Positions 4,142 to 17,523 of a stretch of 21,017 nt of DNA are shown piece after piece. Each line of letters opens with the position of its first letter. The first letter of the stretch is position 1. A model generated the notes under the pieces. That model searched no databases and was not told the origin of the DNA. It was given only the letters and a program-made list of their open reading frames with translations. The stretch covers positions 1-21,017 of the forward strand of contig JAVKIJ010000056.1 in the NCBI GenBank assembly GCA_031459535.1, in the 5' to 3' direction. The position numbers and the translations under genes are program-made. This stretch comes from Candidatus Fervidifonticultor quintus. Its GTDB lineage: Bacteria > Sysuimicrobiota > Sysuimicrobiia > Sysuimicrobiales > Humicultoraceae.

Positions 4142-4287
4142 CAGAGTCCTCCTCACTGGCGCGCTGTCGGGTTGCTGAGGTGCTTTGACAATCTGCGGCC
4201 CCACACCTGCCCGGGCGCCGTCGCAGGACGGAGCGCGCCGCCAGGGGAATGATCCTCTGGCGTTGGCCACTGACACGAGGGTGTACC

Positions 4288-5709
4288 ATGAGTCGGCTCA
4301 TTGATGACGAGGTGTTCTTCGCGACCGCCACGGAGTTGGGCAGGCTGCTCCGGACCCGGGAGGTCTCGAGCGTCGAGCTCACGCAGGCGTTCCTCGACCG
4401 CCTGGAAGCCCTGGGGCCGCGCTACCACGCCCTGGCGGAGCTTGCGCGGGATCTGGCCCTGGGGCAGGCGCGGCGCGCGGATCGGGCGCTCAGCCGCGGG
4501 GCACGAGAGCAGGATCGGGCACACTGGCCGCTGCTCGGGGTGCCGTATGGAGCGAAGGACCTGTTGGCCACCACCGGCATCCCCACGCGGTGGGGGTCAC
4601 CCGCGCATCGTCACCAGGTGTTCGACTACGATGCCACCGTGATCCGCCGGCTGGCGGAGGCGGGCGCGGTGCTGCTCGGCAAGCTGGCCATGGTCGAGCT
4701 CGCCGGTGGCGGCGGATACGAGTACGCCAACGCCTCGGCGGACGGCCCCGGGTTGAACCCCTGGAATCTCAACCACTGGTCAGGCGGGTCGTCATCGGGA
4801 TCGGGCAGCGCGGTGGCGGCTGGACTCGTGCCGTACGCACTGGGATCCGAGACGTGGGGGAGCATCGTCACACCGTCCGCGTTCTGCGGCGTCACGGGCC
4901 TGCGGCCGACGTGGGGGCTGGTGAGCCGGCACGGCGCCATGGAGCTGGCCTGGAGCATGGACAAGGTGGGTCCCATGGCCAGGAGCGCGGAAGACTGCGG
5001 CTGGGTCCTGCACGCCATCGCGGGCGCCGACCCCCGTGACCCCACCAGCGGCTCGGCCCGTTTTGCGTTCAACCCCCGGCTGCCGCGGCGGAGGTGGCAC
5101 CTGGGGATCCTCCCGGCCGACTTCACCGACGCCCCCGCACTCGAGCGGGCATTCGATGACGCCCTTCGCGTCCTGCGTCGGGCGGGCATGCGCCTGCAGA
5201 GCGTCGCCCTGCCCGACCACCCCTATGAAGAGACGGCGCGCACGCTGCTCAACGGTGAGATGGCCGCGGCGCACGCAGAGTTCATCGCGAGCCCGGGCCT
5301 CGACGAGCTGGTGGACGCCGGCCAGAAGGCCGGACTGCGCGGGGCCCTGGAGCTGCGCGCCTCCGACTACGTCCGCGCCCAACAGCGGCGCGTCGAGATC
5401 ACCCGCAGCGTACTGGCCCTCTTCGAGGAGGTGGACGCCCTCGTGGCACCGACGCTGATGACCGAGGCGCCCACGTTGGACACCAACCTGAAGGCCACGT
5501 TCCGACGACGCGGCGGCTACAGCGTCCTGGGAGCGCTGTGCGGCGTGCCCGCGTTGAGCGTCCCCATGGGATTCGGCCGCCAGGGGCTGCCGCTGGGCCT
5601 CTCCTTCACCGGGGACCGCCTGTCGGAGAACACGCTGGTGGCAATCGGCATGATCTTCCAGCGCGAGACCGACTGGCACCGCCGGCGGCCGCCGGCCCTT
5701 AGAGCTTGA
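4288..5709 (+). CDS. Amidase-signature family enzyme (GatA-like fold, stand-alone amidase)
   Basis: Ser-cisSer-Lys motifs: GVPYGAKD, GGSSSGSGSAVAAG, GSETWGSI; also GLRPTWG.VSR.G, SMDKVGPMARS, GVPALSVPMG. Start moved to ATG 4288 (GAGGG upstream). No gatC or gatB adjacent. Confidence 0.92.
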   Translation: MSRLIDDEVFFATATELGRLLRTREVSSVELTQAFLDRLEALGPRYHALAELARDLALGQARRADRALSRGAREQDRAHWPLLGVPYGAKDLLATTGIPTRWGSPAHRHQVFDYDATVIRRLAEAGAVLLGKLAMVELAGGGGYEYANASADGPGLNPWNLNHWSGGSSSGSGSAVAAGLVPYALGSETWGSIVTPSAFCGVTGLRPTWGLVSRHGAMELAWSMDKVGPMARSAEDCGWVLHAIAGADPRDPTSGSARFAFNPRLPRRRWHLGILPADFTDAPALERAFDDALRVLRRAGMRLQSVALPDHPYEETARTLLNGEMAAAHAEFIASPGLDELVDAGQKAGLRGALELRASDYVRAQQRRVEITRSVLALFEEVDALVAPTLMTEAPTLDTNLKATFRRRGGYSVLGALCGVPALSVPMGFGRQGLPLGLSFTGDRLSENTLVAIGMIFQRETDWHRRRPPALRA

Positions 5710-7163: not shown

Positions 7164-7445
7164 ATGGCGACGAAGCTGAGCGTTACAGAAGCGGTGAGGA
7201 ATTTCTCCGAGGTCATCGGCCGCGTCCGCTTCAAGGGCGAGCGCTTTGTCCTCCTGAAAGGCGGTAAGCCCGTGGCCGAACTGCGACCGGCCGACACCGC
7301 GGCGCTGGTTCGCCTGAGCGAGCTGCCGGCGCTCCTTGAATCACTGCCGCATCTCGACCCGGGCGATGCCGACCGCTTCGCCGATGACCTCGAGACGGCC
7401 CGCAGCGCGGCGGGTACCACGCCCAAGCCACTGTGGGCATCCTGA
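7164..7445 (+). CDS. Type II antitoxin, Phd/YefM family (VapB role)
   Basis: LSVTEAVRNFSEVIGRV...GERFVLLKGGKPVAELRP matches the Phd/YefM N-terminal pattern; acidic C-terminal half; overlaps the PIN gene. Alternative start GTG 7155. Confidence 0.88.
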   Translation: MATKLSVTEAVRNFSEVIGRVRFKGERFVLLKGGKPVAELRPADTAALVRLSELPALLESLPHLDPGDADRFADDLETARSAAGTTPKPLWAS

Positions 7446-7840
7446 TCGACTCGAGCGTCTTTATCGCCGCAGAGCGCGGCCGCGTGGCCCTGGCCGAGTA
7501 CATTCGCGGCCGTGAGCACGAGCCGGTCGCCATCAGCGCGATCACGGCCAGCGAACTGCTCCACGGGGTCCATCGGGCCCGCGATCCTCGCCAGCGCACT
7601 CGCCGGGCGCAGTTCGTCGAGGCCATCCTGGCCCGCCTGCCGGTCGTCGAGTTCGACCTGGAGACGGCCCGGGTGCACGCGCAACTGTGGGCCGACCTAC
7701 TGGACCGCGGACAGGCGGTAGGAGCGCACGACCTGATCATCGGGGCCACGGCGATTGCCATGGACGTCCAGGTGGCGACGGTCAACGCTGGCGACTTCGA
7801 GCGGATCCCTGGCCTTCAGGTCCAGATCTGGGGCGCATAG
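7433..7840 (+). CDS. vapC: Type II toxin, PIN-domain ribonuclease (VapC family)
   Basis: 135 aa with ILIDSSVFI, SAITASELLHG, GAHDLIIGATA, VATVNAGDFERIPGL (PIN acidic-residue pattern D/E/D/N-D). Directly downstream of, and overlapping, the antitoxin. Confidence 0.93.
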   Translation: MGILIDSSVFIAAERGRVALAEYIRGREHEPVAISAITASELLHGVHRARDPRQRTRRAQFVEAILARLPVVEFDLETARVHAQLWADLLDRGQAVGAHDLIIGATAIAMDVQVATVNAGDFERIPGLQVQIWGA

Positions 7841-7868
7841 CCTCACCATCGGCGACGCGCCGGTGAGG
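7841..7868. terminator. Hairpin between convergent vapC and glnA (possible bidirectional terminator)
   Basis: CCTCACC (7841-7847) / GGTGAGG (7862-7868) enclosing an inner GGCG/CGCC stem; no U-tract. Confidence 0.4.
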
Positions 7869-7903
7869 TCCACGCGTCCGTTCCGGGCTCACCTTTCCGC
7901 CGC

Positions 7904-9358
7904 CTACGCGTCGTAGTACAGGTAGAACTCCGACGGGTGCGGCCGCAGCCGGATGTAGTCCACGTCCTTCTTCCGCTTCGTCTCCACGTAGGTCTCGATC
8001 AGGTCCTCGGTGAACACCCCGCCTTCCAGCAGAAACTTGTGGTCCTTCTCAAGCGCGTCCAGCGCTTCGGCCAGGGACCCCGGCACCTGTTTGATCCTGG
8101 CTGCCTTCGAGGGCGGCAGCTCGTAGAGGTCCACGTCCATCGGTTCACCGGGGTCGATCCGGTTCCTGATGCCATCCAGCCCGGCCATGAGCATCGCGGC
8201 GTTGGCCAGATAGGGGTTAGCGGTGGGATCCGGGGGCCGGTACTCGATGCGCACCGCCCTGGGGTTGGAGGAGTACATCGGGATGCGGACGGCGGCGCTG
8301 CGGTTGCGCTTGGAGTAGACCAGGTTCACCGGTGCCTCGAAGCCGGGCACCAGGCGGCGGTACGAGTTGGTGGTCGGCGCGCAGAACGCCAGCAGGGCCG
8401 GCGAGTGCCGCAGCAGGCCGCCGATGTAGTACCGGGCGATCTCGCTGAGATTCGCGTACCCCCTCGGGTCGTGGAACAAGTTGACGCCGTCCTTCCACAG
8501 ACTCTGGTGGGTGTGCATGCCGGAGCCGTTGTCCCCGAACAGCGGTTTGGGCATGAAGGTCGCAGTCTTGAAGTGCGAGCGGGCCAGCATCTTCACCAGG
8601 TACTTGTAGAGCTGCATCTGGTCGGCCATCCGGGTCAGGCTCCTAAACCGCATGTCGATCTCGCACTGGCCGGCGGTGGCGACCTCGTGGTGGTGCACCT
8701 CGACCTCGATGCCCGCCTCCTGCATCTTCAGCACCAGCTCACTGCGGAAGTCCTGCAGGCTGTCCGAGGGCGGGACCGGGAAGTAGCCTTCCTTAAACCG
8801 GGGCTTGAACCCCAGGTTGGGCTTCTCATCTCGGCCGGTGTTCCACGAGCCTTCACTGCTATCGACGAAGTAGAAGGCGTGGTTGGCGGTCTGATCGTAG
8901 CGCACGTCGTCGAAGACGAAGAACTCGGCCTCAGGCCCGAAGTACGCGGCGGTGGCGATGCCGCTGGCCCGCAGAAAGTCTTCAGCTTTCTGGGCGACGT
9001 ACCGGGGGTCGCGGGTATACCGGCTCCTGGTGATCGGGTCGTAGACATCGCACGTCAGCAGCATGGTCGGCACGCGGGCCAGGGGGTCTATAACCGCTGT
9101 CCCGGCATCGGCCAGGAGGATCATGTCGCTCTCGTGGATGTGCTGGAAGCCGCGGATGCTGCTCCCGTCGAACCCGATGCCCTCTTCAAAGAGGTCTGGG
9201 GTCAGTTCGCGGGCCGGGATCGAGAAGTGCTGCCACATCCCGAACAGATCGGTGAACCGGAGGTCCACAATCTGGACCCCGTGCGATCTGGCCATTTCGA
9301 TGGCCTGTTCGGGGGCCGCCGCGACATCCGCCGACGGCCGGTCGCCTACCATTGCCAT
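7904..9358 (-). CDS. glnA: Glutamine synthetase type I (GSI-beta)
   Basis: FDGSSIRGF, GPEAEFF, GYFPVPP, HHHEVATAGQCEI, PKPLFGDNGSGMHTHQS, NSYRRLVPGFEAP, RNRSAAVRIP, RIEYRPPDP, adenylylation loop DLYELPP, C-terminal RPHPSEFYLYYDA; GSI-beta insertion present. Start moved to ATG 9358 (GAGGAGG 8 nt upstream). Confidence 0.98.
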   Translation of the reverse strand: MAMVGDRPSADVAAAPEQAIEMARSHGVQIVDLRFTDLFGMWQHFSIPARELTPDLFEEGIGFDGSSIRGFQHIHESDMILLADAGTAVIDPLARVPTMLLTCDVYDPITRSRYTRDPRYVAQKAEDFLRASGIATAAYFGPEAEFFVFDDVRYDQTANHAFYFVDSSEGSWNTGRDEKPNLGFKPRFKEGYFPVPPSDSLQDFRSELVLKMQEAGIEVEVHHHEVATAGQCEIDMRFRSLTRMADQMQLYKYLVKMLARSHFKTATFMPKPLFGDNGSGMHTHQSLWKDGVNLFHDPRGYANLSEIARYYIGGLLRHSPALLAFCAPTTNSYRRLVPGFEAPVNLVYSKRNRSAAVRIPMYSSNPRAVRIEYRPPDPTANPYLANAAMLMAGLDGIRNRIDPGEPMDVDLYELPPSKAARIKQVPGSLAEALDALEKDHKFLLEGGVFTEDLIETYVETKRKKDVDYIRLRPHPSEFYLYYDA

Positions 9359-9407
9359 GTCCTGTCCCTCCTCACCCCCCGTGGTGATTGGGGGGAGATT
9401 CTCGTCC

Positions 9408-9443
9408 GGAAAAGCAGAAGGCGCCCACACCAGGGGCGCCTTC
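9408..9443 (-). terminator. Intrinsic terminator/attenuator inside the glnA 5' leader
   Basis: Minus-strand RNA GAAGGCGCCC-CUGGUGU-GGGCGCCUUC (perfect 10-bp stem, 9443-9417) followed by UGCUUUUCC, lying between the promoter and the glnA start. Confidence 0.8.
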
Positions 9444-9466
9444 GCCCGAAGTACGTCTCGGTACTT
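9434..9466 (-). promoter_or_regulatory. Dual hexaloop-hairpin RNA element (ANTAR-target-like antiterminator)
   Basis: P1 AAGUAC-CGAGAC-GUACUU (9466-9449) and P2 GGGC-GAAGGC-GCCC (9447-9434). Both have C-G closing pairs, 6-nt loops and G at loop position 4. P2 overlaps the terminator 5' arm. Confidence 0.65.
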
Positions 9467-9473
9467 GCCCGCT

Positions 9474-9502
9474 ACTATAGCAAGACGACTTCAGCCCGTC
9501 AA
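9474..9502 (-). promoter_or_regulatory. Sigma70-type promoter of glnA
   Basis: TTGACG (9502-9497), 17 nt, TATAGT (9479-9474) with an extended -10 TGn. Predicted +1 near 9466-9467. Confidence 0.85.
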
Positions 9503-9551
9503 CAGGGCTGCCAACAATGACGGGCGGCGGAACAGGCCGCTCGCCAGACGG

Positions 9552-11315
9552 TCACAGCGCCGCCTCGATCACCTCGACGGCCTCCTCAAGCGCCCACCGC
9601 ACCCAGTTGGCCCGACGCCGCAAGAGAACCTCCAGCAAGCGGGCTTCGTGGGTCGCCGGATCCAACGTCCCCAGTAGCGCCGACTGGGCCAGGGCCGGCA
9701 CCGGGGCGGTCACAGGGCCGGGATCGTGATCGAACGGCCCCCCCACGGTGTAGCCAACTGGGACCAGCAGACGCCCGAGCCGCATCACCGCGTCATTGAG
9801 GACCCGCAGCCGTCGCTCGTCACCTGCGGCCTCCGCCGCTGCCAACGCATCGTTCAATCCGGCAGCCGCGACCTCGAGGCGCTCGGCCGCGGCCACCTCG
9901 GTCGAGAGGTCCAGGCGGCCCCGAGCCGCAGCCTGGTAGCCGGCGAGCGCCCGGTGCAGTTCCCGGGCGGTCTGGGCGTAGTCCAGCGGCAGCGCCGGCT
10001 TGTTGACGAGCCTGTAGACCGCCGCCGTATAGATCTGCGTGTCCCGCACCAGCAACGCCTCGTCAATCTTGTCGGTGGTGTCCTCGGTGGTGTGCCACCA
10101 CCAGCCCAACCCCGCCGCGCGCCCGGCGGCGCCCTCGAACAGCGAGAGGCCCCGGGCGGTCTCGGGATTTGCCGCGTCCTGCTCGGAGAAGGTGCCGAAG
10201 AGCGAGGGTACTCCGATGCCGACAAACGACTGGTCGGCGAACCGACCAATGCGCCTGCCGCGGAGCTCCTGTCCTCCGATGGCGCGGACCAGGTCGGCCG
10301 CCAGGGCGATGGTCTCGGCCATGACCGGCGCGTCTTCGAGGACGGTGGCGCCGCGACCGCCCGTGGAGTCGGCGTTCACGTGGGCCACGCAGTGCCGGTA
10401 CAGGTCGTGCCAGAAGGTGTCGGCATACCAGGTCGAGCCGGCGAACCGTCCGTGGGAGTGTCCCGACCAGAACGCGATGCGGATGCAGCGGCGCCGGGGC
10501 CTGGCGGCCAGCACGCCCACGACCTCCAGCATGGTGGCGTTGGCCGACCCGTTGTCCATGGCGCCGTAGTGCCACGAGTCGAGATGGCTCGACAGCAGCA
10601 CGAACCGGTCGGGCTCGACCTGTCCGGGCAGATCGCCGACCAGGAGAGGAATCGTACGCCAGCCCGTCTGCACCTCGCCCCAGGCGCGCACCCGCACTGG
10701 CCCCCGGGCGAGCAACTCGCCAAGCCGCTGGCCGGCTGACCGGGTGACCGAGAAGCTTGGCGTCCTGGGGAGCAGGTCGACGGTCTGGGGCGTCGGTGGC
10801 CCCCACAGGGGCGACACGCTGGTCTCGTGGGTGCAGTCGCCGTGGACATAGATGTGGGCCACCGCGCCGTGCTGCTCGGCCAGTTGCGCCCGGGCACCCA
10901 GTGCCAGACCTTCCACCAGCGCGATCTTGCCCCGCACATCGGCCCGCGCGTACTCCTCCGGCGTGCCGCGCCCGACCGGCACCAGCTCGCCCTCGACGCC
11001 CCCGGGACCGGTGGGTGCCGCGAAGGCGTGGGTGATGCACGGAACTGGCTCATGGACCGGTTCCACGATCTCCATGCGCGCTGCACCCGGCAGGCTGATG
11101 AACGCATGGTGCTGGTAGAGGTGGGTGCTCAGCCCGAGCCCTCGGAGCACACCTTCCACATACTCGAACGCCCGCCGCTCGTCGGGCTCCCCAGACAACC
11201 GAACCCACTGCGCGATTCGTCGGGTGTATGCCATCAACCGGGCGCCCGAGACCGCCGCGACGGCCGCGGCTTCCCCCCGCGCCGGGTCCGGAAGGGCGGA
11301 GGGCACCGCGGTCAC
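9552..11315 (-). CDS. M28-family metallopeptidase with PA domain and helical C-terminal domain; atypical active site
   Basis: PA domain (GELVPVGRGTPEEY...DVRGKIALV), metal-ligand motifs SHLDSW, GAMDNGS, VNADS, WWHTTEDT. FWSGHSHGRFAGS replaces W-x-x-EE-x-G-x-x-GS. GTGA coupling with the upstream gene; no signal peptide. Confidence 0.88.
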   Translation of the reverse strand: MTAVPSALPDPARGEAAAVAAVSGARLMAYTRRIAQWVRLSGEPDERRAFEYVEGVLRGLGLSTHLYQHHAFISLPGAARMEIVEPVHEPVPCITHAFAAPTGPGGVEGELVPVGRGTPEEYARADVRGKIALVEGLALGARAQLAEQHGAVAHIYVHGDCTHETSVSPLWGPPTPQTVDLLPRTPSFSVTRSAGQRLGELLARGPVRVRAWGEVQTGWRTIPLLVGDLPGQVEPDRFVLLSSHLDSWHYGAMDNGSANATMLEVVGVLAARPRRRCIRIAFWSGHSHGRFAGSTWYADTFWHDLYRHCVAHVNADSTGGRGATVLEDAPVMAETIALAADLVRAIGGQELRGRRIGRFADQSFVGIGVPSLFGTFSEQDAANPETARGLSLFEGAAGRAAGLGWWWHTTEDTTDKIDEALLVRDTQIYTAAVYRLVNKPALPLDYAQTARELHRALAGYQAAARGRLDLSTEVAAAERLEVAAAGLNDALAAAEAAGDERRLRVLNDAVMRLGRLLVPVGYTVGGPFDHDPGPVTAPVPALAQSALLGTLDPATHEARLLEVLLRRRANWVRWALEEAVEVIEAAL

Positions 11316-11998
11316 CGGTTCACCCCCGCGATCAGCTTACGCTCCGCCATGGCCGCGAACTCCGCTGCGGTCATGACAAACCCCAGCGCCGCCTCGATCT
11401 CCATCAGCGCGAAGCGGTGGTAATCGGCGCCATTCATGGACCCGCACGCATCGGAGAGGACCACGACGCGGAAGTCGCGGCTGTGAGCGTCGTAGACCGT
11501 GGCCAGGACGCAGTTGTTGGTGTTGACCCCGCAGACGAAGAGCGTCTCCGCCCGCAGCCCGCGGAGGACGGTCTCCAGGTCGGTCCCGTAGAACCCGCTG
11601 TACCGGCGCTTGACGACCACGGGTTCATCGCGCTGCGGGGCCAGCTCCGGCAGGATCTCAGCGTAGACCGACCCCTCCACGTTCTTTCCACTCTGCCGGG
11701 GCCGGCCCATGCCGGGCACGATCTTGCCGGTCTGGTACTCCCAGAACGGATTGCGGTGGTCCACCAACCCCCAGGGCGACGATCGCCGGGAGCAGGTCGC
11801 CACGTGCACGACCGGCATGTGGACCCGCCGGGCAGTCTCCAGGCCGGTGCGCGCCGCGGCGACGATGCCAGCGATTACCGCCGGATCAACCGGATGGTAG
11901 GCGACCGCCGGATCCACATGGCGGCGCTGCATGTCTATCTGGATGTATGCGCTGGCGTCGAGCCTGACGGCATCTTCGACCTCAGCGGGAAGTGCCAC
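11312..11998 (-). CDS. Isochorismatase-family cysteine hydrolase
   Basis: Asp-Lys-Cys triad motifs IDMQ, VVKRRYSGFYGTDLETVLRGL, GVNTNNCVLATVYDA, VVVLSDAC. GAGGAGG SD before GTG 11998. Confidence 0.93.
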   Translation of the reverse strand: MALPAEVEDAVRLDASAYIQIDMQRRHVDPAVAYHPVDPAVIAGIVAAARTGLETARRVHMPVVHVATCSRRSSPWGLVDHRNPFWEYQTGKIVPGMGRPRQSGKNVEGSVYAEILPELAPQRDEPVVVKRRYSGFYGTDLETVLRGLRAETLFVCGVNTNNCVLATVYDAHSRDFRVVVLSDACGSMNGADYHRFALMEIEAALGFVMTAAEFAAMAERKLIAGVNR

Positions 11999-12016
11999 GA
12001 GATACGCCTCCTCTGT

Positions 12017-13228
12017 TCACGGGATCTGTTCTCGCTCGGGCAGGTAGAACGACCGGACCGGCGGGCTGTAGGGGCCAGCCCCCGTCTTCTGCGGTACCAG
12101 GACCATCCTGTTCAGGTCCCGGGGGAGCCTGCCGTCCAGCGCATCCCTCAACCAGTCGGCCAGGAAGGGGTAGATGTCCATCCCCGCGATCCCCTGCCGC
12201 CCGGTGATGCGGTGGAACTCGTTCTCGAACACCCAGAGTTCCCGCGGCCCGGCCAGCTCGTGCACGAACTGCAGCACGTCCTCGAGGTGGCAGAGCGGAT
12301 CGTACTCGCCGGTGACCACCAGCGTCGGGCAACTGATGCGCGCACCGTACCCCTCGGTGGTCATGCGGGCGGCCATCTCGTCGAACGCCGCCTCGTCCCG
12401 CATTCCGGCCATGTACATGAACATCTGCTTGAAGCGCGGCGACGCCTCCTCAAAGATGGCCCGTTTCGACCCGTACACGGCGTGGGTGGTCGCCAGGGCC
12501 CGCACGCGATCGTCCCGCGCGGCCAGCCGGGCGCCCCAGTGGGATCCGAAGCTGGTGCCGTAGACGCCCACGCGGCCGGCGTCCACCTCGGCCCGTCGAA
12601 CCAAGTAGTCGAGACAGGCCTGCGCCGCCCGCTCGTAGTTGTCGTCGGTCACCCAGATCTTGCGGAGGCTGCTGATCCCCTGGCCTGGTCCATCAATGGA
12701 CAGCACATGCATGCCTCGCTGCGCGAAGGCGTTGTCGAGGGGGTTGGGAAAGGCCTCTTTCGTCATATCCATGCCGGGGATGAACAGGATCGCCGGCGCG
12801 CGCGTGCGCCCCGGGAGCAGGTGCAGCAACCCCGCGATGGACCGGCCTTCCCAGGGGATCTCCACGGGCTCGATCGGGTAGTCCGCGAAGGCGATGACCT
12901 TCTCGTAGCACGCGAGCAGACGACCGTGCAGGAACACCTTCTCGGGATGGTCCTCGACGAAGATCGCGTGCTGGGCCTCTCGGTAGGTCTGCGCGGCGCG
13001 CCAGTACAGGGCCAGCGCAGTCCGCCGGTGTCCGGCGCGCTCGGCGGCCCGGGCGATGTCCTCCTCGTGGCGAGCCTTGCGGTAGAGGACCCGCGGGATC
13101 ATCCGGTAGCTCTTCACCTCGGGGGGCAGGTCCCGTTCGTCGTTGGCGAAGTTCTGCACCCGGCCCGTCTGCTTGACGAGCCAGTCCAGGATCCACTGCT
13201 GGTTGTCCCGCCGTCGCACGGTCTTCAT
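12017..13228 (-). CDS. Alpha/beta hydrolase (FrsA / 2,6-dihydroxypseudooxynicotine-hydrolase-like)
   Basis: Helical N-terminal region, then VEIPWEG, PGMDMTKE, DGPGQG, nucleophile elbow GTSFG, acid GEYDPL, His NEFH. AGGAG SD. Confidence 0.85.
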   Translation of the reverse strand: MKTVRRRDNQQWILDWLVKQTGRVQNFANDERDLPPEVKSYRMIPRVLYRKARHEEDIARAAERAGHRRTALALYWRAAQTYREAQHAIFVEDHPEKVFLHGRLLACYEKVIAFADYPIEPVEIPWEGRSIAGLLHLLPGRTRAPAILFIPGMDMTKEAFPNPLDNAFAQRGMHVLSIDGPGQGISSLRKIWVTDDNYERAAQACLDYLVRRAEVDAGRVGVYGTSFGSHWGARLAARDDRVRALATTHAVYGSKRAIFEEASPRFKQMFMYMAGMRDEAAFDEMAARMTTEGYGARISCPTLVVTGEYDPLCHLEDVLQFVHELAGPRELWVFENEFHRITGRQGIAGMDIYPFLADWLRDALDGRLPRDLNRMVLVPQKTGAGPYSPPVRSFYLPEREQIP

Positions 13229-13276
13229 CGGCCCACTCCTGCCGGTTCAGCCATCGAGCGCCTCGAACGGCGCGCG

Positions 13277-14167
13277 TCAGCGCCGCGTCGCACGGGGATC
13301 GAGCGCATCCCGCAGCCCGTCCCCGAACAGATTGAACCCCAGCACCACCAGCATCACGGCCAGCCCGGGATAGATCGCCACGTGGGGGGCTGTGCGCAGG
13401 TACGTGCGTCCGTCAGACAGCATGGCGCCCCACTCCGGAATCGGCGGCTGGGCGCCGAGCCCGAGAAAACCCAGGTAGGCCGCCGACAGAATGGCACCGG
13501 CTAGGTTGAGGGTAGACTGCACGATCACCGGCCCCACGGCATTGGGAAAGACGTGGCGCACCAGAATGCGCCCCTCGTGCAGACCCAGCGCCCGGGCCGC
13601 CTCCACGAACGTTTCCGCCCGCAGGCGGATGACTTCGCCCCGGATGAGCCGCGCATAGAGGGGCATCTGGGCCACGCCGATGGCAATCATCGCGTTGCGG
13701 ATGCCCGGACCGAACAGCGCGACGATGATGATGGCAATCAGGATGGCAGGAAACGACAGGAGGATGTCGATCAGCGTCATCAGGACGTGTCCGACCCATC
13801 CGCCGCGGTAGCCGGCAATCGCGCCGATGGGGAGACCGATGACCGCGGCCACACCCACGGCGATGATCCCGATGACCAGAGAGACCCGTCCGCCGTAGAT
13901 AATGCGGGACAGCAGGTCGCGGCCCTGCTGATCCATCCCCAGCCAGTGCTGGCTTGAGGGGCGCGCCAGCCGCAGCGAGAGGTTGGCGTCCGTGGGGCCG
14001 TAGGGCGCTGCAGCCGGGGCGAAGACCGCCAACAAGACGAAGACCAGCACGACCCCCAACCCGGCCTGGGCGCCCCGATGCCGGCGAAAGCGGCGCCACG
14101 CCCAAGACGTCCTGACCCGGAGAAGCGGACGGCCGGCCGCTGGGGTCTCGGCGGCTGCCTCACGCAT
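13277..14167 (-). CDS. Peptide/nickel ABC transporter permease (DppC-like)
   Basis: HWLGMDQQGRDLLSRIIYGGRVSL, FVEAARALG...HVFPN, LGFLGLGAQPP.PEWGAML, NLFGDGLRDALDPR. Confidence 0.95.
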   Translation of the reverse strand: MREAAAETPAAGRPLLRVRTSWAWRRFRRHRGAQAGLGVVLVFVLLAVFAPAAAPYGPTDANLSLRLARPSSQHWLGMDQQGRDLLSRIIYGGRVSLVIGIIAVGVAAVIGLPIGAIAGYRGGWVGHVLMTLIDILLSFPAILIAIIIVALFGPGIRNAMIAIGVAQMPLYARLIRGEVIRLRAETFVEAARALGLHEGRILVRHVFPNAVGPVIVQSTLNLAGAILSAAYLGFLGLGAQPPIPEWGAMLSDGRTYLRTAPHVAIYPGLAVMLVVLGFNLFGDGLRDALDPRATRR

Positions 14168-15080
14168 GGCGGATCCTGGGATCGAGGGCGGCGTAGGCCA
14201 CGTCCACCAGCATGTTGATCAGCACGAAGACCACCGCCAGCCAGAGCACGATGCCCTGGACCACCGGGTAGTCGCGCTTCGCGATGGCGGTCAGCAGGAA
14301 ACTTCCTAGGCCCGGCAGGCTGAAGACGGTCTCGGTGAGGATGGCGCCGCCCAGCATGCGGCCGAACTCCAGTCCCACGATGGTGACCACGGGAATCAGC
14401 GCGTTGCGCAGGGCGTGGACGACGGCGACGCGCGGGGTCGGCACGCCCTTCGCGTGCGCGGTGCGCACGTAGTCCTGCCTCAGCACGTCGAGCATGGCGG
14501 ACCGGGTCTGGCGCGCGATGATGCCCGCGGCGAAGAACCCCAGGCTCACCGCGGGCAGGATGAAGGCCTGCCAGCCCTCGGCGCCGCCGCTGGGCAGCCA
14601 TCCCAGCACGACCGCAAAGAGGAGGATCAGCAGCATACCCGACCAGAAGATGGGCGTGGAGACGCCCAGCATGGCCACCACCATGCTGCCGTAGTCCCAG
14701 AGCGTGTACACCCGCATCGCACCCAGCAGGCCGGCGGACAGGCCGATGACCAGCGCCACGGCCATGGCCGCAACGGCCAGCACCAGGGTGACCCGGAAAC
14801 GCTGGGCGATCTCCTCGCGGACCTCGAGGTCGCTCACGATGGACCGGCCGAGGTCACCGCGCACCAGGTTCCGCAGGAACACCCCGTACTGGACGGGCAG
14901 CGGCTGGTCCAGACCCCACTGGGCGCGGATGGACGCCACGGTCTCCGGCGTGGCGAAGTCGCCGGCCAGCAGCACCGCCGGGTCTCCCGGCACCGCCCGC
15001 AGCGCCAGGAAGATCAAGACGGTGACGGCCAGCAGGCTGGGGATCGCCAGCAGGAGCCGGCGGGCCAGGTATTGCTTCAT
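14160..15080 (-). CDS. Peptide/nickel ABC transporter permease (DppB-like)
   Basis: PGDPA, GLDQPLPVQY, GDLGRS, PIFW, QDYVRTAHAKG...HALRNALIP, TETVFSLPGLG, RDYPVVQG, LDPRIR. ATGA coupling. Confidence 0.95.
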   Translation of the reverse strand: MKQYLARRLLLAIPSLLAVTVLIFLALRAVPGDPAVLLAGDFATPETVASIRAQWGLDQPLPVQYGVFLRNLVRGDLGRSIVSDLEVREEIAQRFRVTLVLAVAAMAVALVIGLSAGLLGAMRVYTLWDYGSMVVAMLGVSTPIFWSGMLLILLFAVVLGWLPSGGAEGWQAFILPAVSLGFFAAGIIARQTRSAMLDVLRQDYVRTAHAKGVPTPRVAVVHALRNALIPVVTIVGLEFGRMLGGAILTETVFSLPGLGSFLLTAIAKRDYPVVQGIVLWLAVVFVLINMLVDVAYAALDPRIRHA

Positions 15081-16639
15081 CTGAACTCTACGTCATGGAG
15101 CGGCCACGTGGTGGACAGGGAAGTGACGTGCCTGGCGTATCCGTGCACGTTCTTGCGCGTCGCCCAGAAGATGGGCTGCTGGTACATGGGGAGGACCGGC
15201 AGGTCTTGCATGATCACCTGCTGGATCTGCCGGATGATGGCCCGCCGCTTCTCCTGGTCCGGCTCGGTCTGCTGGGCGGCGTAGAGCCGCTCGAACTCCT
15301 CGCTGACGTAGAACGGCACGTTGTTGCCCCGCGGGGGCAGGTCGGCGCGGGTGAAGATGCCGATGGCGCTGTCGGCGTCGGCGTTCACCGTGCGCCACCA
15401 TGTGAAGGTCATCTGGCTGGGGTTTCGTTCCAGGGGCAGCCGCAGCATGGCCGAGTACTGGCCCCACTCCATCTGGTTGATGCGCATCGTCACGCCGATC
15501 TTGGCCAGCTGGGCCTGCACCGCCTCGACGACCTCCTTGTCCATCAGATAGCGGCCGGCGCCATACGAGAACGTAAAGGTCAGGTTGGGGACCCCCGCCT
15601 CCTGGAGCAGCGCCCTGGCCCGTTCGGGGTTGTACCGGTAGATGTCATAGGTGTCCACGTACCCCATGGCGTTGGAGGGCACCGGCGAGTGCGCCACCTT
15701 GGCCAGGCCGGCGAAGATCTGCTTCACGATCGCTTCGCGGTCGATGGCGTAGGCCATAGCGTGGCGCACGCGGATCTCGTTGAACGGCGGCCGCTGGGTG
15801 TTCATGTTGAAGCGGATGAAGCCGGCAGACGGCGGGTTGATGAAGACCAGGTTCGGGTTCCGCTTGATCCGCTCGGCGTCCTGCGGGGTGAAGTCGTGGA
15901 TCACGTCCACGTCGCCCGACTCCAGAGCCGCCACTCGGGCGCTGATGTCCGGGACGTAGCGCACGACGACCCGGCGGATCTTCGGCTTCCCGGCCCAGTA
16001 CTGGTCGAAGGCCTCGAGCTCCATCCGGTCGCCGCGCACGAGCCGGACGAACTTGTAGGGGCCCGGGCCGATCGGGTGCCTGGCGAACTCCTGGTCGCTG
16101 CCGGCCTTCTCGATGGCGGCCTTGCTGAAGATGCCCACGGATTGGTAGGTGAAGGTACGCAGCAGCGGTGCAAACGGCGCCTTGGTGCTGACCTTGACTC
16201 GGTTACCCGGCAGCACGGACACACTCTCCACCGGGGCCAGGGATGAGCGGCCGATGGCGATCCGGCGAAACCGGTCCAGGCTGAAGGCGACGTCGTCTGC
16301 TGTCAGCGTGCGGCCGTCGTGCATCTTCACGTTGTCGCGGATCTTGAAGACCAGCGATCGGCCGCCGTCCTCTTCGGTCCACGACTCGGCGAGCCAGGGT
16401 GTGACCTTGCCCTTTTCATCCAACACCACCAGCGTGTCGGAGATCTGCGCCACCAGGCCGATGGCCGGCAGTCCAATGGCCAGGTGCGTGTCTGCCGACG
16501 GAACCTCGATGGGCAGGGCGATCACCAGGGTGTCCTTCGTCTGCCCCCATGTCGGTCCGGCCAGCACCAACCCCAGGCCGGCCAGCACCACGGTCGCCAC
16601 TCGTACCCACCATCCCACTGCGTCGGTCGTTCTCACCAT
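15077..16639 (-). CDS. Family 5 ABC substrate-binding protein
   Basis: Start moved to ATG 16639 (GAGGAGGAGGGG upstream), followed by a hydrophobic signal peptide. PWLAESW, FKIRDNVKMHDG..LTADDV.FS, IGPGPYKF, FDQYWAGKP, VRHAMAYAIDR. Confidence 0.95.
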   Translation of the reverse strand: MVRTTDAVGWWVRVATVVLAGLGLVLAGPTWGQTKDTLVIALPIEVPSADTHLAIGLPAIGLVAQISDTLVVLDEKGKVTPWLAESWTEEDGGRSLVFKIRDNVKMHDGRTLTADDVAFSLDRFRRIAIGRSSLAPVESVSVLPGNRVKVSTKAPFAPLLRTFTYQSVGIFSKAAIEKAGSDQEFARHPIGPGPYKFVRLVRGDRMELEAFDQYWAGKPKIRRVVVRYVPDISARVAALESGDVDVIHDFTPQDAERIKRNPNLVFINPPSAGFIRFNMNTQRPPFNEIRVRHAMAYAIDREAIVKQIFAGLAKVAHSPVPSNAMGYVDTYDIYRYNPERARALLQEAGVPNLTFTFSYGAGRYLMDKEVVEAVQAQLAKIGVTMRINQMEWGQYSAMLRLPLERNPSQMTFTWWRTVNADADSAIGIFTRADLPPRGNNVPFYVSEEFERLYAAQQTEPDQEKRRAIIRQIQQVIMQDLPVLPMYQQPIFWATRKNVHGYARHVTSLSTTWPLHDVEFR

Positions 16640-17523
16640 GCCCCTCCTCCTCTCCGCGATGGCCTCTGGTGCGCCGTGACTCCGGCCCCGGCGCGCAGCC
16701 TGCGCGTAGGACGATCTGCCCACGGAGAGCCCGCGCCGTAGCCCAGGTCTCTAGAAATGGCAGCCGCGGTGCGGGTCACCTCAGCGACGAGTTGAGGGAT
16801 GCGGTCCCGCGGGATGCGCGCCGCCGGAGCCAGGACGCTGATGCTGGCCACCACCGATCCGGTGTGGTCGCGCACCGGCGCCGCGACGCCGTGGACGCCC
16901 TCGTGGGACTCTCCGAACGTGACGCTGTAGCCCCTGGCCCGGATGGCAGCCAAGTCGCGTCGCAGCCGCTGCGGGTCGGTAATCGTCAAAGGCGTCAGCG
17001 CCGGCAGCCCGCGCCGGATCACCTGCTCGATCCGTTCGGCCGGCAGGTGCGCCAGCAGGACCTTCATCGAGCACCCGGCATGGAGCGGCCGACGCATTCC
17101 CACCCGCGTCCACAGCCGGAACCCGGCCAGCGGTTCCAGTTTCTCGACGTAGATCCCCTCGTGGCCGTCGACGACCTGCAGCGAGACGGTCTCGCCGGTC
17201 CGGTCGCGCAGCCGCTCCATGTGGGGCCGGGCGATGGGACGGAGCTCGATCTGTTCGCTGACCAGGTAGCCGCGTTCGAGCAACTTGTAACCCAGACGGA
17301 AGCCGCGGGTCGCCGCATCGTAGTGGAGATAGCCGAAGTCTCGCAGGGCAGAGAGCAGCCGGTGGGTGGTGGCGCGGGGGAGGCCGGACGCCTCGGTGAG
17401 CTGCTGGAGGGTGAGCTCAGGGCGCTCGAGGCTGAACAGGTCCAGCAGGCCCAGGGCTTTGCCGAGGCTCGAGGGGGAATCGAGCCGGGACCGGTGTCGC
17501 CGCCCAGGGGTCGTATATCTCAC
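16633..17523 (-). CDS. IclR-family transcriptional regulator
   Basis: SLGKALGLLDLF, HTH LQQLTEASGLPRATTHRLL, FRLG, GETVSL, VGMRRPLHAGCSMKVLLA, IRARGYS...E...GVHGVAAPV. The track's start (17562) lies inside the promoter, so GTG 17523 is preferred; the start remains uncertain. Confidence 0.93.
   Translation of the reverse strand: MRYTTPGRRHRSRLDSPSSLGKALGLLDLFSLERPELTLQQLTEASGLPRATTHRLLSALRDFGYLHYDAATRGFRLGYKLLERGYLVSEQIELRPIARPHMERLRDRTGETVSLQVVDGHEGIYVEKLEPLAGFRLWTRVGMRRPLHAGCSMKVLLAHLPAERIEQVIRRGLPALTPLTITDPQRLRRDLAAIRARGYSVTFGESHEGVHGVAAPVRDHTGSVVASISVLAPAARIPRDRIPQLVAEVTRTAAAISRDLGYGAGSPWADRPTRRLRAGAGVTAHQRPSRRGGGAW

Follow-up and report, generated by a model that had tools for sequence, protein, structure and literature searches.

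A 21,017-nt stretch of contig JAVKIJ010000056.1 (positions 1–21,017) of Candidatus Fervidifonticultor quintus (assembly GCA_031459535.1), referred to below as the window, carries on its minus strand glnA, the gene for a type I glutamine synthetase, preceded by a leader with two short hairpins (P1 and P2) and an intrinsic terminator. Based on the comparison of this leader with those of related genomes, it is highly probable that it functions as an ANTAR-type, protein-dependent transcription attenuator, most likely run by the REC-ANTAR response regulator encoded in the same genome. An ANTAR-type switch had been suggested by an earlier reading of the leader sequence (hereafter, the original prediction), and this view is now supported by an ANTAR gene found in the genome, by the covariation of P2 and the terminator, and by the presence of the P2/terminator module before amtB-glnK and, in relatives, before amtB and ANTAR genes. 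The kind of mechanism is already known; its variant features are a C at the first loop position, a single conserved hairpin and an apparent shift of the recognition loop to P1. Related leaders may already figure in the supplementary target lists of Ramesh 2012 and Mehta 2021.

Organization of the glnA Leader

The promoter, P1, P2 and the terminator are all present on the minus strand at the place where the original prediction had put them (Table 1). In the 5' to 3' direction, the promoter is followed by seven bases, P1, a one-base linker (C, 9448), P2 and the terminator. A promoter scan of positions 7500–11500 on both strands revealed TTGACG-17-TATAGT (9502..9474) as the sole promoter-like site, compared with 0.3 ± 0.6 sites in shuffled sequences. 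Judging from the −10 box only, transcription would start at about 9468–9465. In the DNA, the terminator reads GAAGGCGCCC-CTGGTGT-GGGCGCCTTC followed by TGCTTTTCC; according to the terminator scan, it has 10 pairs, 8 of which are G–C, and it is one of two terminator-like sites found, where 1.1 ± 1.0 would be expected. The 3' ends of a terminated RNA would be expected near 9412–9409.

Positions 9443–9434 are common to P2 (its loop and 3' arm) and to the 5' arm of the terminator; therefore, these two structures exclude each other, as had been claimed. The minimum-free-energy fold contains both P1 and the terminator. Energy evaluation gave −24.7 kcal/mol for P1 together with the terminator versus −11.2 kcal/mol for P1 together with P2; thus, termination would be the default state, and read-through would need a factor that holds P2.

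Over its residues from 9349 onwards, the product of glnA scores 664 bits with TIGR00653 (GlnA; cut-off, 429). Relatives share its N-terminus, MAMVGDRP, and the start codon is the ATG at 9358, not one further downstream.

Conservation and Covariation among Relatives

In the comparisons, G000 denotes the genome of the window. The unpublished genomes G013 and G022 are included in the blastn, glnA, model and ANTAR tallies, and no conclusion hangs on either of them. A blastn search with the 221-nt upstream stretch against 40 relatives gave clear matches in G009, G003, G014 and G015, and the similarity to G009 and G014 starts exactly at 9466, the first base of P1.

A glnA match at E ≤ 1e-100 was detected in 34 of 41 genomes, and the region upstream of glnA was read in 29 genomes. 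In 20 of these 29 relatives (19 of 28 without G013), P2 with an overlapping terminator, [G/A]GGC-hexaloop-GCC[C/U], is located directly 5' of glnA. A TTGAC-type promoter is followed there, ~30–36 nt later, by [G/A]GGC, six bases and GCC[C/U], the six bases and GCC forming the 5' arm of the terminator; a TTGAC[G/A/C] box stands at an equal distance in all 18 of the glnA leaders aligned. In G025, G030, G031, G033, G036, G039 and G040, glnA is found directly behind another gene, and a match to the covariance model R1, which comprises P2 plus the terminator and was trained on glnA leaders, lies 1.7–4.2 kb upstream on the same strand, usually before amtB; module and glnA would form one operon in these seven genomes. 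No such element was seen in the upstream regions read near glnA of G016 and G034.

Covariation was assessed in alignment A1 (18 glnA leaders) and alignment A2 (52 model matches, 51 distinct rows). In the latter, the training rows are included, one place is represented twice, and two partial rows come from the reverse strand; this alignment was fitted to the terminator structure of the model, not to P2. The terminator helix shows compensatory changes in 6 of 11 pairs in A1, and its covariation score was reached by none of 500 shuffles. P2 is paired in 72 of 72 cells of A1 and in 197 of 198 cells of A2, where the outer pair is G–C in 36 cases, A–U in 8, G–U in 4 and another combination in 1, and where none of 500 shuffles reached either the paired percentage or the covariation score. 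The inner three pairs of P2 barely vary in A2 and are therefore uninformative either way. With respect to the covariation of the three structures that the original prediction had brought up, P2 and the terminator are conserved and covary, whereas P1 is confined, among glnA leaders, to those of five genomes.

The REC-ANTAR Regulator and Its Partner Kinase

Bioinformatics analysis revealed exactly one ANTAR match (PF03861, 87.7 bits) in the genome of the window; the original prediction, which had recognised no ANTAR gene in the window itself, had suggested that the genome be searched for such a protein. The regulator (G000:C110) is a REC-ANTAR protein of 187 aa (PF00072, 96.4 bits; PF03861, 84.6 bits). 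A gene for a histidine kinase of 554 aa with the domain order GAF-GAF-HisKA_2-HATPase_c ends 7 nt before the start of the regulator gene, and the two genes are presumably co-transcribed.

Full-length comparison of the regulator with the REC-ANTAR proteins of G007, G023 and G021 gave 62–63% identity. In these three genomes, as well as in G017 and in the unpublished G013, kinase and REC-ANTAR genes of the same build end right before the promoter of the glnA leader. Because the genomes of family f1 that were searched have at most one ANTAR match over the cut-off each, with the exception of G022, the REC-ANTAR proteins encoded beside glnA leaders are most likely orthologues of the regulator of the window genome. 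ANTAR is present in 37 of the 41 relatives. The four ANTAR-less genomes (G001, G008, G018 and G024) have no R1 match, or only a 23.7-bit match inside a peptidase-like frame, and three of the four are also without this glnA.

Two REC-ANTAR proteins of solved structure, 1s8n_A (E-value, 1.5e-55; residues 2–186) and 6wsh_A (E-value, 4.4e-42), align with the regulator from one end to the other. We take the chain 6wsh_A to be EutV, and 1s8n_A, described as a 'putative antiterminator', is presumably PdtaR (Rv1626). R141, E159 and F163 of the regulator align with R142, E160 and Y164 of EutV, a two-residue numbering offset of the chain having been deduced from the residue pattern. According to the literature, these EutV residues hold the flipped G4 of the target loop (PMC8934654).

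Other Sites of the Module

Matches to R1 were found in 38 of 41 relatives at E ≤ 0.05. Of 94 genomes of the phylum, 63 have a match at E ≤ 0.001; all 94 belong to one order, and one genus has none in eight genomes. Beyond the training glnA leaders, 40 matches were fetched, and the first plausible downstream gene of each was examined. Nine of them precede ammonium transporter genes (amtB), of which five, along with that of the window genome, were called by Pfam and the rest by clustering with those. Another seven precede genes for REC-ANTAR response regulators, all of which are over the Pfam ANTAR cut-off, and eight a conserved open reading frame (ORF) of 46–59 aa. Genes without a family follow five matches, and two matches are cut by contig ends. 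The other nine were judged by eye to be probably false: they lie inside long open frames and have no U-tract, and all have E-values ≥ 0.001.

In the genome of the window, the top R1 match is the glnA leader (51 bits), and the second (C46:19841-19887; 21 bits; E-value, ~0.09) falls in the amtB-glnK leader. This leader has a promoter (TTGACA...TATAAG), a hairpin GGGC-CGCGAA-GCCC and a terminator CGCGAAGCCCCC/GGGGGCUUUCGC with UUUUGC; amtB comes next, together with a P-II gene. When the same genome was scanned with two regular expressions for a hexaloop plus a terminator, 80 and 56 matches were obtained, nearly all of them intragenic, and by eye only the glnA and amtB leaders were convincing. The dual hairpin that the original prediction had proposed to look for before amtB and glnK is thus represented there by the P2/terminator module, whereas P1 is no part of the lineage-wide element. 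Judging from these sequences, the glnA and amtB-glnK leaders would be expected to make up a small nitrogen-assimilation regulon.

In a few leaders, two modules are arranged in tandem (L177 and L183, amtB of G004 and G002; L161 and L184, G039). For instance, GGGC-CGGGAA-GCC... with its terminator is followed ~45 nt later by GGGC-CAGGAC-GCCU with another terminator; these arrangements look like the tandem attenuators known for some ANTAR regulons.

The small ORF mentioned above (M..DDPMRLWVGTW.P... with a variable charged tail) is found directly 3' of the module at eight loci of eight genomes (Table 1), and a related ORF (MERRWDPLMLWDD...) is located between the leader and glnA of G028 (L139). 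Database searches of the small ORF yielded no Pfam family, and its sole named homologue is a 'hypothetical protein'; a protein identical to the one of G006 carries the NCBI label 'Armatimonadota bacterium'. In the 89%-complete assembly of the window genome, the small ORF (DPMxLWVGTW) was not found, the tblastn and profile matches being inside other genes, in another frame or context. The ORF may encode a small protein under nitrogen control, and glutamine synthetase might be its target.

The genus without matches at E ≤ 0.001 (0 of 8 genomes) is g4, which comprises G008, G018, G024 and five more genomes. Neither an ANTAR match nor a glnA of this type was found in the three members searched (G008, G018 and G024), and the genus may assimilate nitrogen differently.

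Proposed Mechanism

Based on the predicted anatomy of the leader, transcription would start at, or just 5' of, P1. By default, the 10-bp terminator would form and RNA polymerase would stop near 9410, leaving an RNA of roughly 55 nt. The GAF-GAF-HisKA_2 kinase would phosphorylate the REC-ANTAR regulator G000:C110, and the phosphorylated regulator would bind the hexaloop(s) of the nascent leader and keep the P2 helix GGGC/GCCC closed. Closed P2 would withhold the 5' arm of the terminator, so that the polymerase would read into glnA. The same regulator would be expected to act on the amtB-glnK leader, and, by analogy with the GnfK/GnfR system of Geobacter sulfurreducens, the switch would be on under nitrogen limitation. 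Such a mechanism offers a testable picture of nitrogen-assimilation control in an uncultured lineage, in which glnA and amtB-glnK, and in relatives also the regulator gene itself, would be governed by a single two-component system that acts through RNA binding.

Hexaloops and the Possible Roles of P1 and P2

The ANTAR target has been described as a dual hexaloop with A1 and G4 (Ramesh 2012, PMC3369931). In 49 distinct rows, position 1 of the P2 loop is C in 39, A in 3, T in 3, G in 2 and a gap in 2; position 4 is G without exception; position 5 is always a purine (A 33, G 16); and position 6 is C in 48. A six-letter loop is present in 47 of the 49 rows. As read from these alignments, the lineage-wide element is P2 alone, with the loop C-R-Y-G-R-C.

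The original prediction had stressed the non-canonical loops as unusual. The absence of A1 and the retention of G4 hold, but the loops are less unusual than claimed, since G4 has been described as the only base-specific contact in the EutV-RNA model (Walshe 2022, PMC8934654), since the conservation reported for A1 and G4 among actinobacterial targets is no higher than 'more than 50%' (Mehta 2021, PMC8164766), and since the Geobacter GnfR motif shares the frame of P2 (PMC2995071); A1 has been treated as a consensus feature, not as a protein contact (PMC8934654, PMC8164766). A set of ~50 natural leaders with fixed G4, R5 and C6, with C replacing A1 and with a seemingly dispensable second hairpin would be useful for defining what the ANTAR domain reads, and strict A1/G4 dual-hairpin searches would miss these sites.

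A convincing P1 beside P2 was identified in the glnA leaders of G000, G009, G003, G014 and G015, with the loops CGAGAC, CGUGAC, CAAGAU, CGCGAC and CGAGAG, respectively (G4 in five of five), and in two leaders of G030, one hairpin of which, GUAC-CGUGAC-GUAC, is nearly the same as P1 of the window. A conserved P1 was sought across all leaders, and none was found beyond these. In seven relatives' leaders, the −10 box lies 6–8 nt 5' of P2, and, judging from its position, the RNA probably begins at P2. The P1 loop of the five P1-bearing glnA leaders equals the P2 consensus of the lineage (C-R-N-G-R-Y), and the P2 loops of the same leaders have drifted to GAAGGC, AAGGGC, UCAGGC, GAGGC and UGGC (6, 6, 6, 5 and 4 nt; the 5-nt loop is that of G014 and the 4-nt loop that of G015); the stem GGGC/GCCC is retained. 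In the window, it is likely that the P1 loop is the protein-binding loop and that P2 serves as the competing helix one base away.

A wider interpretation, which we put forward tentatively and with considerable doubt, is that the ANTAR regulator of this lineage works on a single hexaloop hairpin (C-R-Y-G-R-C), which is itself the antiterminator and often stands at the 5' end of the transcript, in contrast to the two A-x-x-G hexaloops of the textbook model, and that in the leader group of the window the recognition loop has moved to a new P1, only the stem of P2 being kept. If this is true, the protein would protect P2 from the neighbouring P1, for which one dimer bridging both hairpins or helix stacking can be offered as a guess, and the regulon would also include the 46–59 aa protein, which could regulate glutamine synthetase.

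The P1-type glnA leader is found in genomes of four genera: G000 and G003 belong to the genus of the window, and G009, G014 and G015 to other genera. Three more members of the window's genus (G002, G004 and G005) have a P2-only leader, i.e., the leader type does not track the genus assignment; exchange of the glnA region or repeated loss could account for this distribution. In the five P1-type leaders (L003, L004, L005, L006 and the window), the terminator loop CUGGUGUG (9427–9433) and the adjoining GGCGCC arms are identical, and the tails and P2 loops differ; the terminator loop is conserved beyond the needs of a terminator.

Two other pairings were considered and rejected. Loop-loop pairing of the terminator loop (UGGUG) with the loop of the downstream hairpin (CACCA) is restricted to this genome and absent from G009, G003 and G014, and an alternative hairpin over P1/P2, CCGAG-ACGUAC-UUCGG, is not kept in G009. 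Exact-word searches of the window genome for P1 and for the terminator loop found each in the leader only, except for look-alikes in coding regions.

Evidence Against and Alternative Explanations

Several observations weigh against the ANTAR-type attenuator. The ANTAR operon of this genome is located on another contig, not beside glnA. In the window, the consensus A at the first loop position is replaced by C in P1 and by G in P2. Moreover, the P2 loop GAAGGC can pair G1 with C6, the hairpin by itself folds into a 5-bp stem capped by a tetraloop, and P2 of the window may have no protein-binding hexaloop at all; P1, in turn, lies outside the terminator, and binding at P1 alone gives no obvious block. 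A second hexaloop hairpin is no general feature, either: hexaloop-G4 hairpins of at least 4 bp are found 5' of P2 in 15 of 45 leaders (shuffled sequences, 7.0 ± 2.4), several of which have them in promoters or upstream terminators. The fold of the whole 136-nt leader is no better than those of shuffled sequences (z = −0.37); therefore, the case rests on conservation, not on folding energy. As to conservation, the related genomes are kin, and the counts overstate independent support.

There is a small chance that the switch is real and has another operator, i.e., another RNA-binding protein or, in a riboswitch, a small molecule in place of the ANTAR regulator. Such an operator would be compatible with loops without A1 and with a terminator loop that does not vary among the five closest leaders, an invariance that a plain terminator would not require. 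However, just about 20–30 nt lie 5' of P2, and an aptamer could not be accommodated in the seven leaders with a −10 box 6–8 nt before P2. Moreover, seven REC-ANTAR genes are preceded by the motif, which also adjoins four kinase/ANTAR operons, and its frame equals that of the GnfR motif. Infernal analysis of positions 9000–9900 against Rfam, with E-values up to 10, returned chance-level matches only (mir-3960, snoZ206, sraL and Six3os1) and no family at its gathering score; sraL, which scored highest in the leader, has 15.3 bits where 39 would be needed (E-value, 0.82). The comparison with Rfam families suggested in the original prediction therefore assigned the leader to none of them, and its riboswitch alternative found no support. 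The glutamine riboswitch (glnA RNA motif, Rfam) is likewise an RNA element tied to the control of glutamine synthetase, but it gave no match in that search and is without the terminator-overlapping hexaloop logic, and membership of the leader in it was rejected.

A slighter chance still is given to an unregulated structure that ends read-through from the upstream peptidase gene or constitutively trims glnA expression, with P1 as a 5' stabiliser and P2 as a G+C-rich accident. Between the M28 peptidase gene (9552–11315) and the promoter, the scan detected no terminator that would serve this gene, P2 is just 4 bp long, and the z-score of the fold is not significant. On the other hand, the 5' GGGC that makes P2 is retained in 49 to 50 of 51 rows, with the outer base covarying with its partner, the loop keeps G4, R5 and C6, and the module recurs specifically before glnA, amtB and ANTAR genes, the upstream neighbours of which differ.

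It is very improbable that the promoter, P1 and the terminator form an independent small RNA of about 55 nt, glnA being expressed from elsewhere: although the promoter and the terminator delimit a short transcription unit, which is covered by the weak, chance-level similarity to sraL, the scan found no second promoter-like site between the terminator and glnA, the module is always located directly 5' of a same-strand coding gene, and most leaders are without P1.

Comparison with Known Systems

Targets of ANTAR proteins have been predicted before genes for P-II, ammonium transporters, urea, nitrate, nitrogenase and glutamate/glutamine synthesis (Ramesh 2012, PMC3369931), and the accompanying commentary names glutamine synthetase leaders (PMC3369936). 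In G. sulfurreducens, gnfK and gnfR are needed for nifH read-through, and GnfR has been proposed to bind CAGGCAANGGCGCC, a word that overlaps terminators, among them those of nifH, glnK and amtB (Ueki and Lovley 2010, PMC2995071). Similar to the system proposed here, GnfK/GnfR consists of a histidine kinase and a REC-ANTAR regulator acting on terminators of nitrogen-gene leaders, glnK and amtB included, and the GnfR motif has the same frame as P2 (GGC, six bases ending in GGC, and GCC) and overlaps the terminator. The differences lie in the loop, which starts with A in Geobacter (AANGGC) and mostly with C here (39 of 49 rows); in the kinase, which carries two GAF domains here, whereas GnfK has been described as being without an apparent sensor domain; and in the promoters, as nifH and glnB of Geobacter have been placed under RpoN, whereas sigma-70-type promoters are predicted here and glnA is a putative target.

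EutV/EutW and the eut leaders of Enterococcus faecalis likewise combine a REC-ANTAR regulator with a short hexaloop hairpin bearing G4, and their P2, too, contributes its loop and 3' arm to an intrinsic terminator. The dual-hexaloop model of EutV needs two hexaloops with A1 and G4, whereas A1 is absent here, P1 is found in a subset of leaders, and the leaders of some relatives apparently start at P2. The eut targets serve ethanolamine use, and those proposed here nitrogen assimilation.

PdtaS/PdtaR-type systems are similar in that 1s8n_A is the best solved relative of the regulator and in that the regulator is paired with a HisKA_2-type kinase bearing GAF at its N-terminus. Two GAF domains are present in the kinase here, and the RNA targets proposed here are glnA and amtB leaders with terminators. 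NasR/nasF and AmiR/amiE share with the glnA leader the principle of an ANTAR protein that overrides a leader terminator at nitrogen-related operons, hexaloop A1 and G4 being of importance (PMC3369931). NasR and AmiR have other sensors (NIT and the partner AmiC, respectively) and other targets, and are not phosphorylated response regulators.

Genomic Context and Other Features

The features of the leader, the neighbouring genes in the window and the loci found 3' of the module in relatives are listed in Table 1.

Table 1. Predicted features of the glnA leader and its surroundings in the window, and genes associated with the module in relatives.
Feature	Position	Strand	Sequence or description	Basis
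−35 box	9497..9502	−	TTGACG	promoter scan
−10 box	9474..9479	−	TATAGT; TG two bases upstream (extended −10); spacer 17 (ends TGC)	promoter scan
P1 hairpin	9449..9466	−	AAGUAC / loop CGAGAC / GUACUU (6 bp)	sequence, fold
P2 antiterminator hairpin (predicted)	9434..9447	−	GGGC / GAAGGC / GCCC	sequence, alignments
Intrinsic terminator stem-loop	9417..9443	−	GAAGGCGCCC / CUGGUGU / GGGCGCCUUC	terminator scan, fold, covariation
U-rich tail	9408..9416	−	UGCUUUUCC	terminator scan
Hairpin just 5' of the ribosome-binding site	9375..9395	−	CCCCCC / AAUCACCAC / GGGGGG	sequence, fold
Shine-Dalgarno sequence	9366..9373	−	GAGGAGGG, 7 nt 5' of ATG	read from sequence
glnA	7904..9358	−	type I glutamine synthetase, 484 aa	TIGR00653
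PIN-domain gene	7433-7840	+	convergent with glnA	
Amidase gene	4249-5709	+		
Isochorismatase-family gene, alpha/beta hydrolase, oligopeptide-type ABC transporter	11312-16723	−	upstream of glnA	
Small ORF	L164:1544-1720	−		
Small ORF	L160:163-303	+		
Small ORF	L171:163-303	+		
Small ORF	L173:1533-1676	−		
Small ORF	L169:1578-1718	−		
Small ORF	L163:161-307	+		
Small ORF	L159:1561-1698	−		
Small ORF	L168:175-351	+		
Membrane protein without Pfam family (G036)	L154:266-1474	+	403-404 aa, 3' of module	
Membrane protein without Pfam family (G033)	L165:437-1648	+	403-404 aa, 3' of module	
Membrane protein without Pfam family (G040)	L176:113-1645	−	511 aa, between module and glnA	

The C6/G6 hairpin in front of the ribosome-binding site might stabilise the mRNA or control access to this site. 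The leaders of G009, G003, G014, G004 and G011 have a hairpin of a C-run and a G-run, with differing loops, in the corresponding position.

The neighbours of glnA are ordinary genes. The M28 peptidase gene, which is the same-strand gene upstream of the leader, is preceded by peptide-transporter genes. The closest named GlnA in the genome collection is that of the metagenome-assembled 'Bacillati bacterium ANGP1', with 75% identity. A metatranscriptome contig of 538 nt spans 9500–10037 with five differences; no contig of that run covers the leader, and the run bears neither way on transcription starts, ends or expression. Three hot-spring metagenome DNA runs, among which the sample of origin may be represented, contain 0.91–0.97 of the sampled words of the region, and one metatranscriptome contains 0.21 of them (all runs as contigs).

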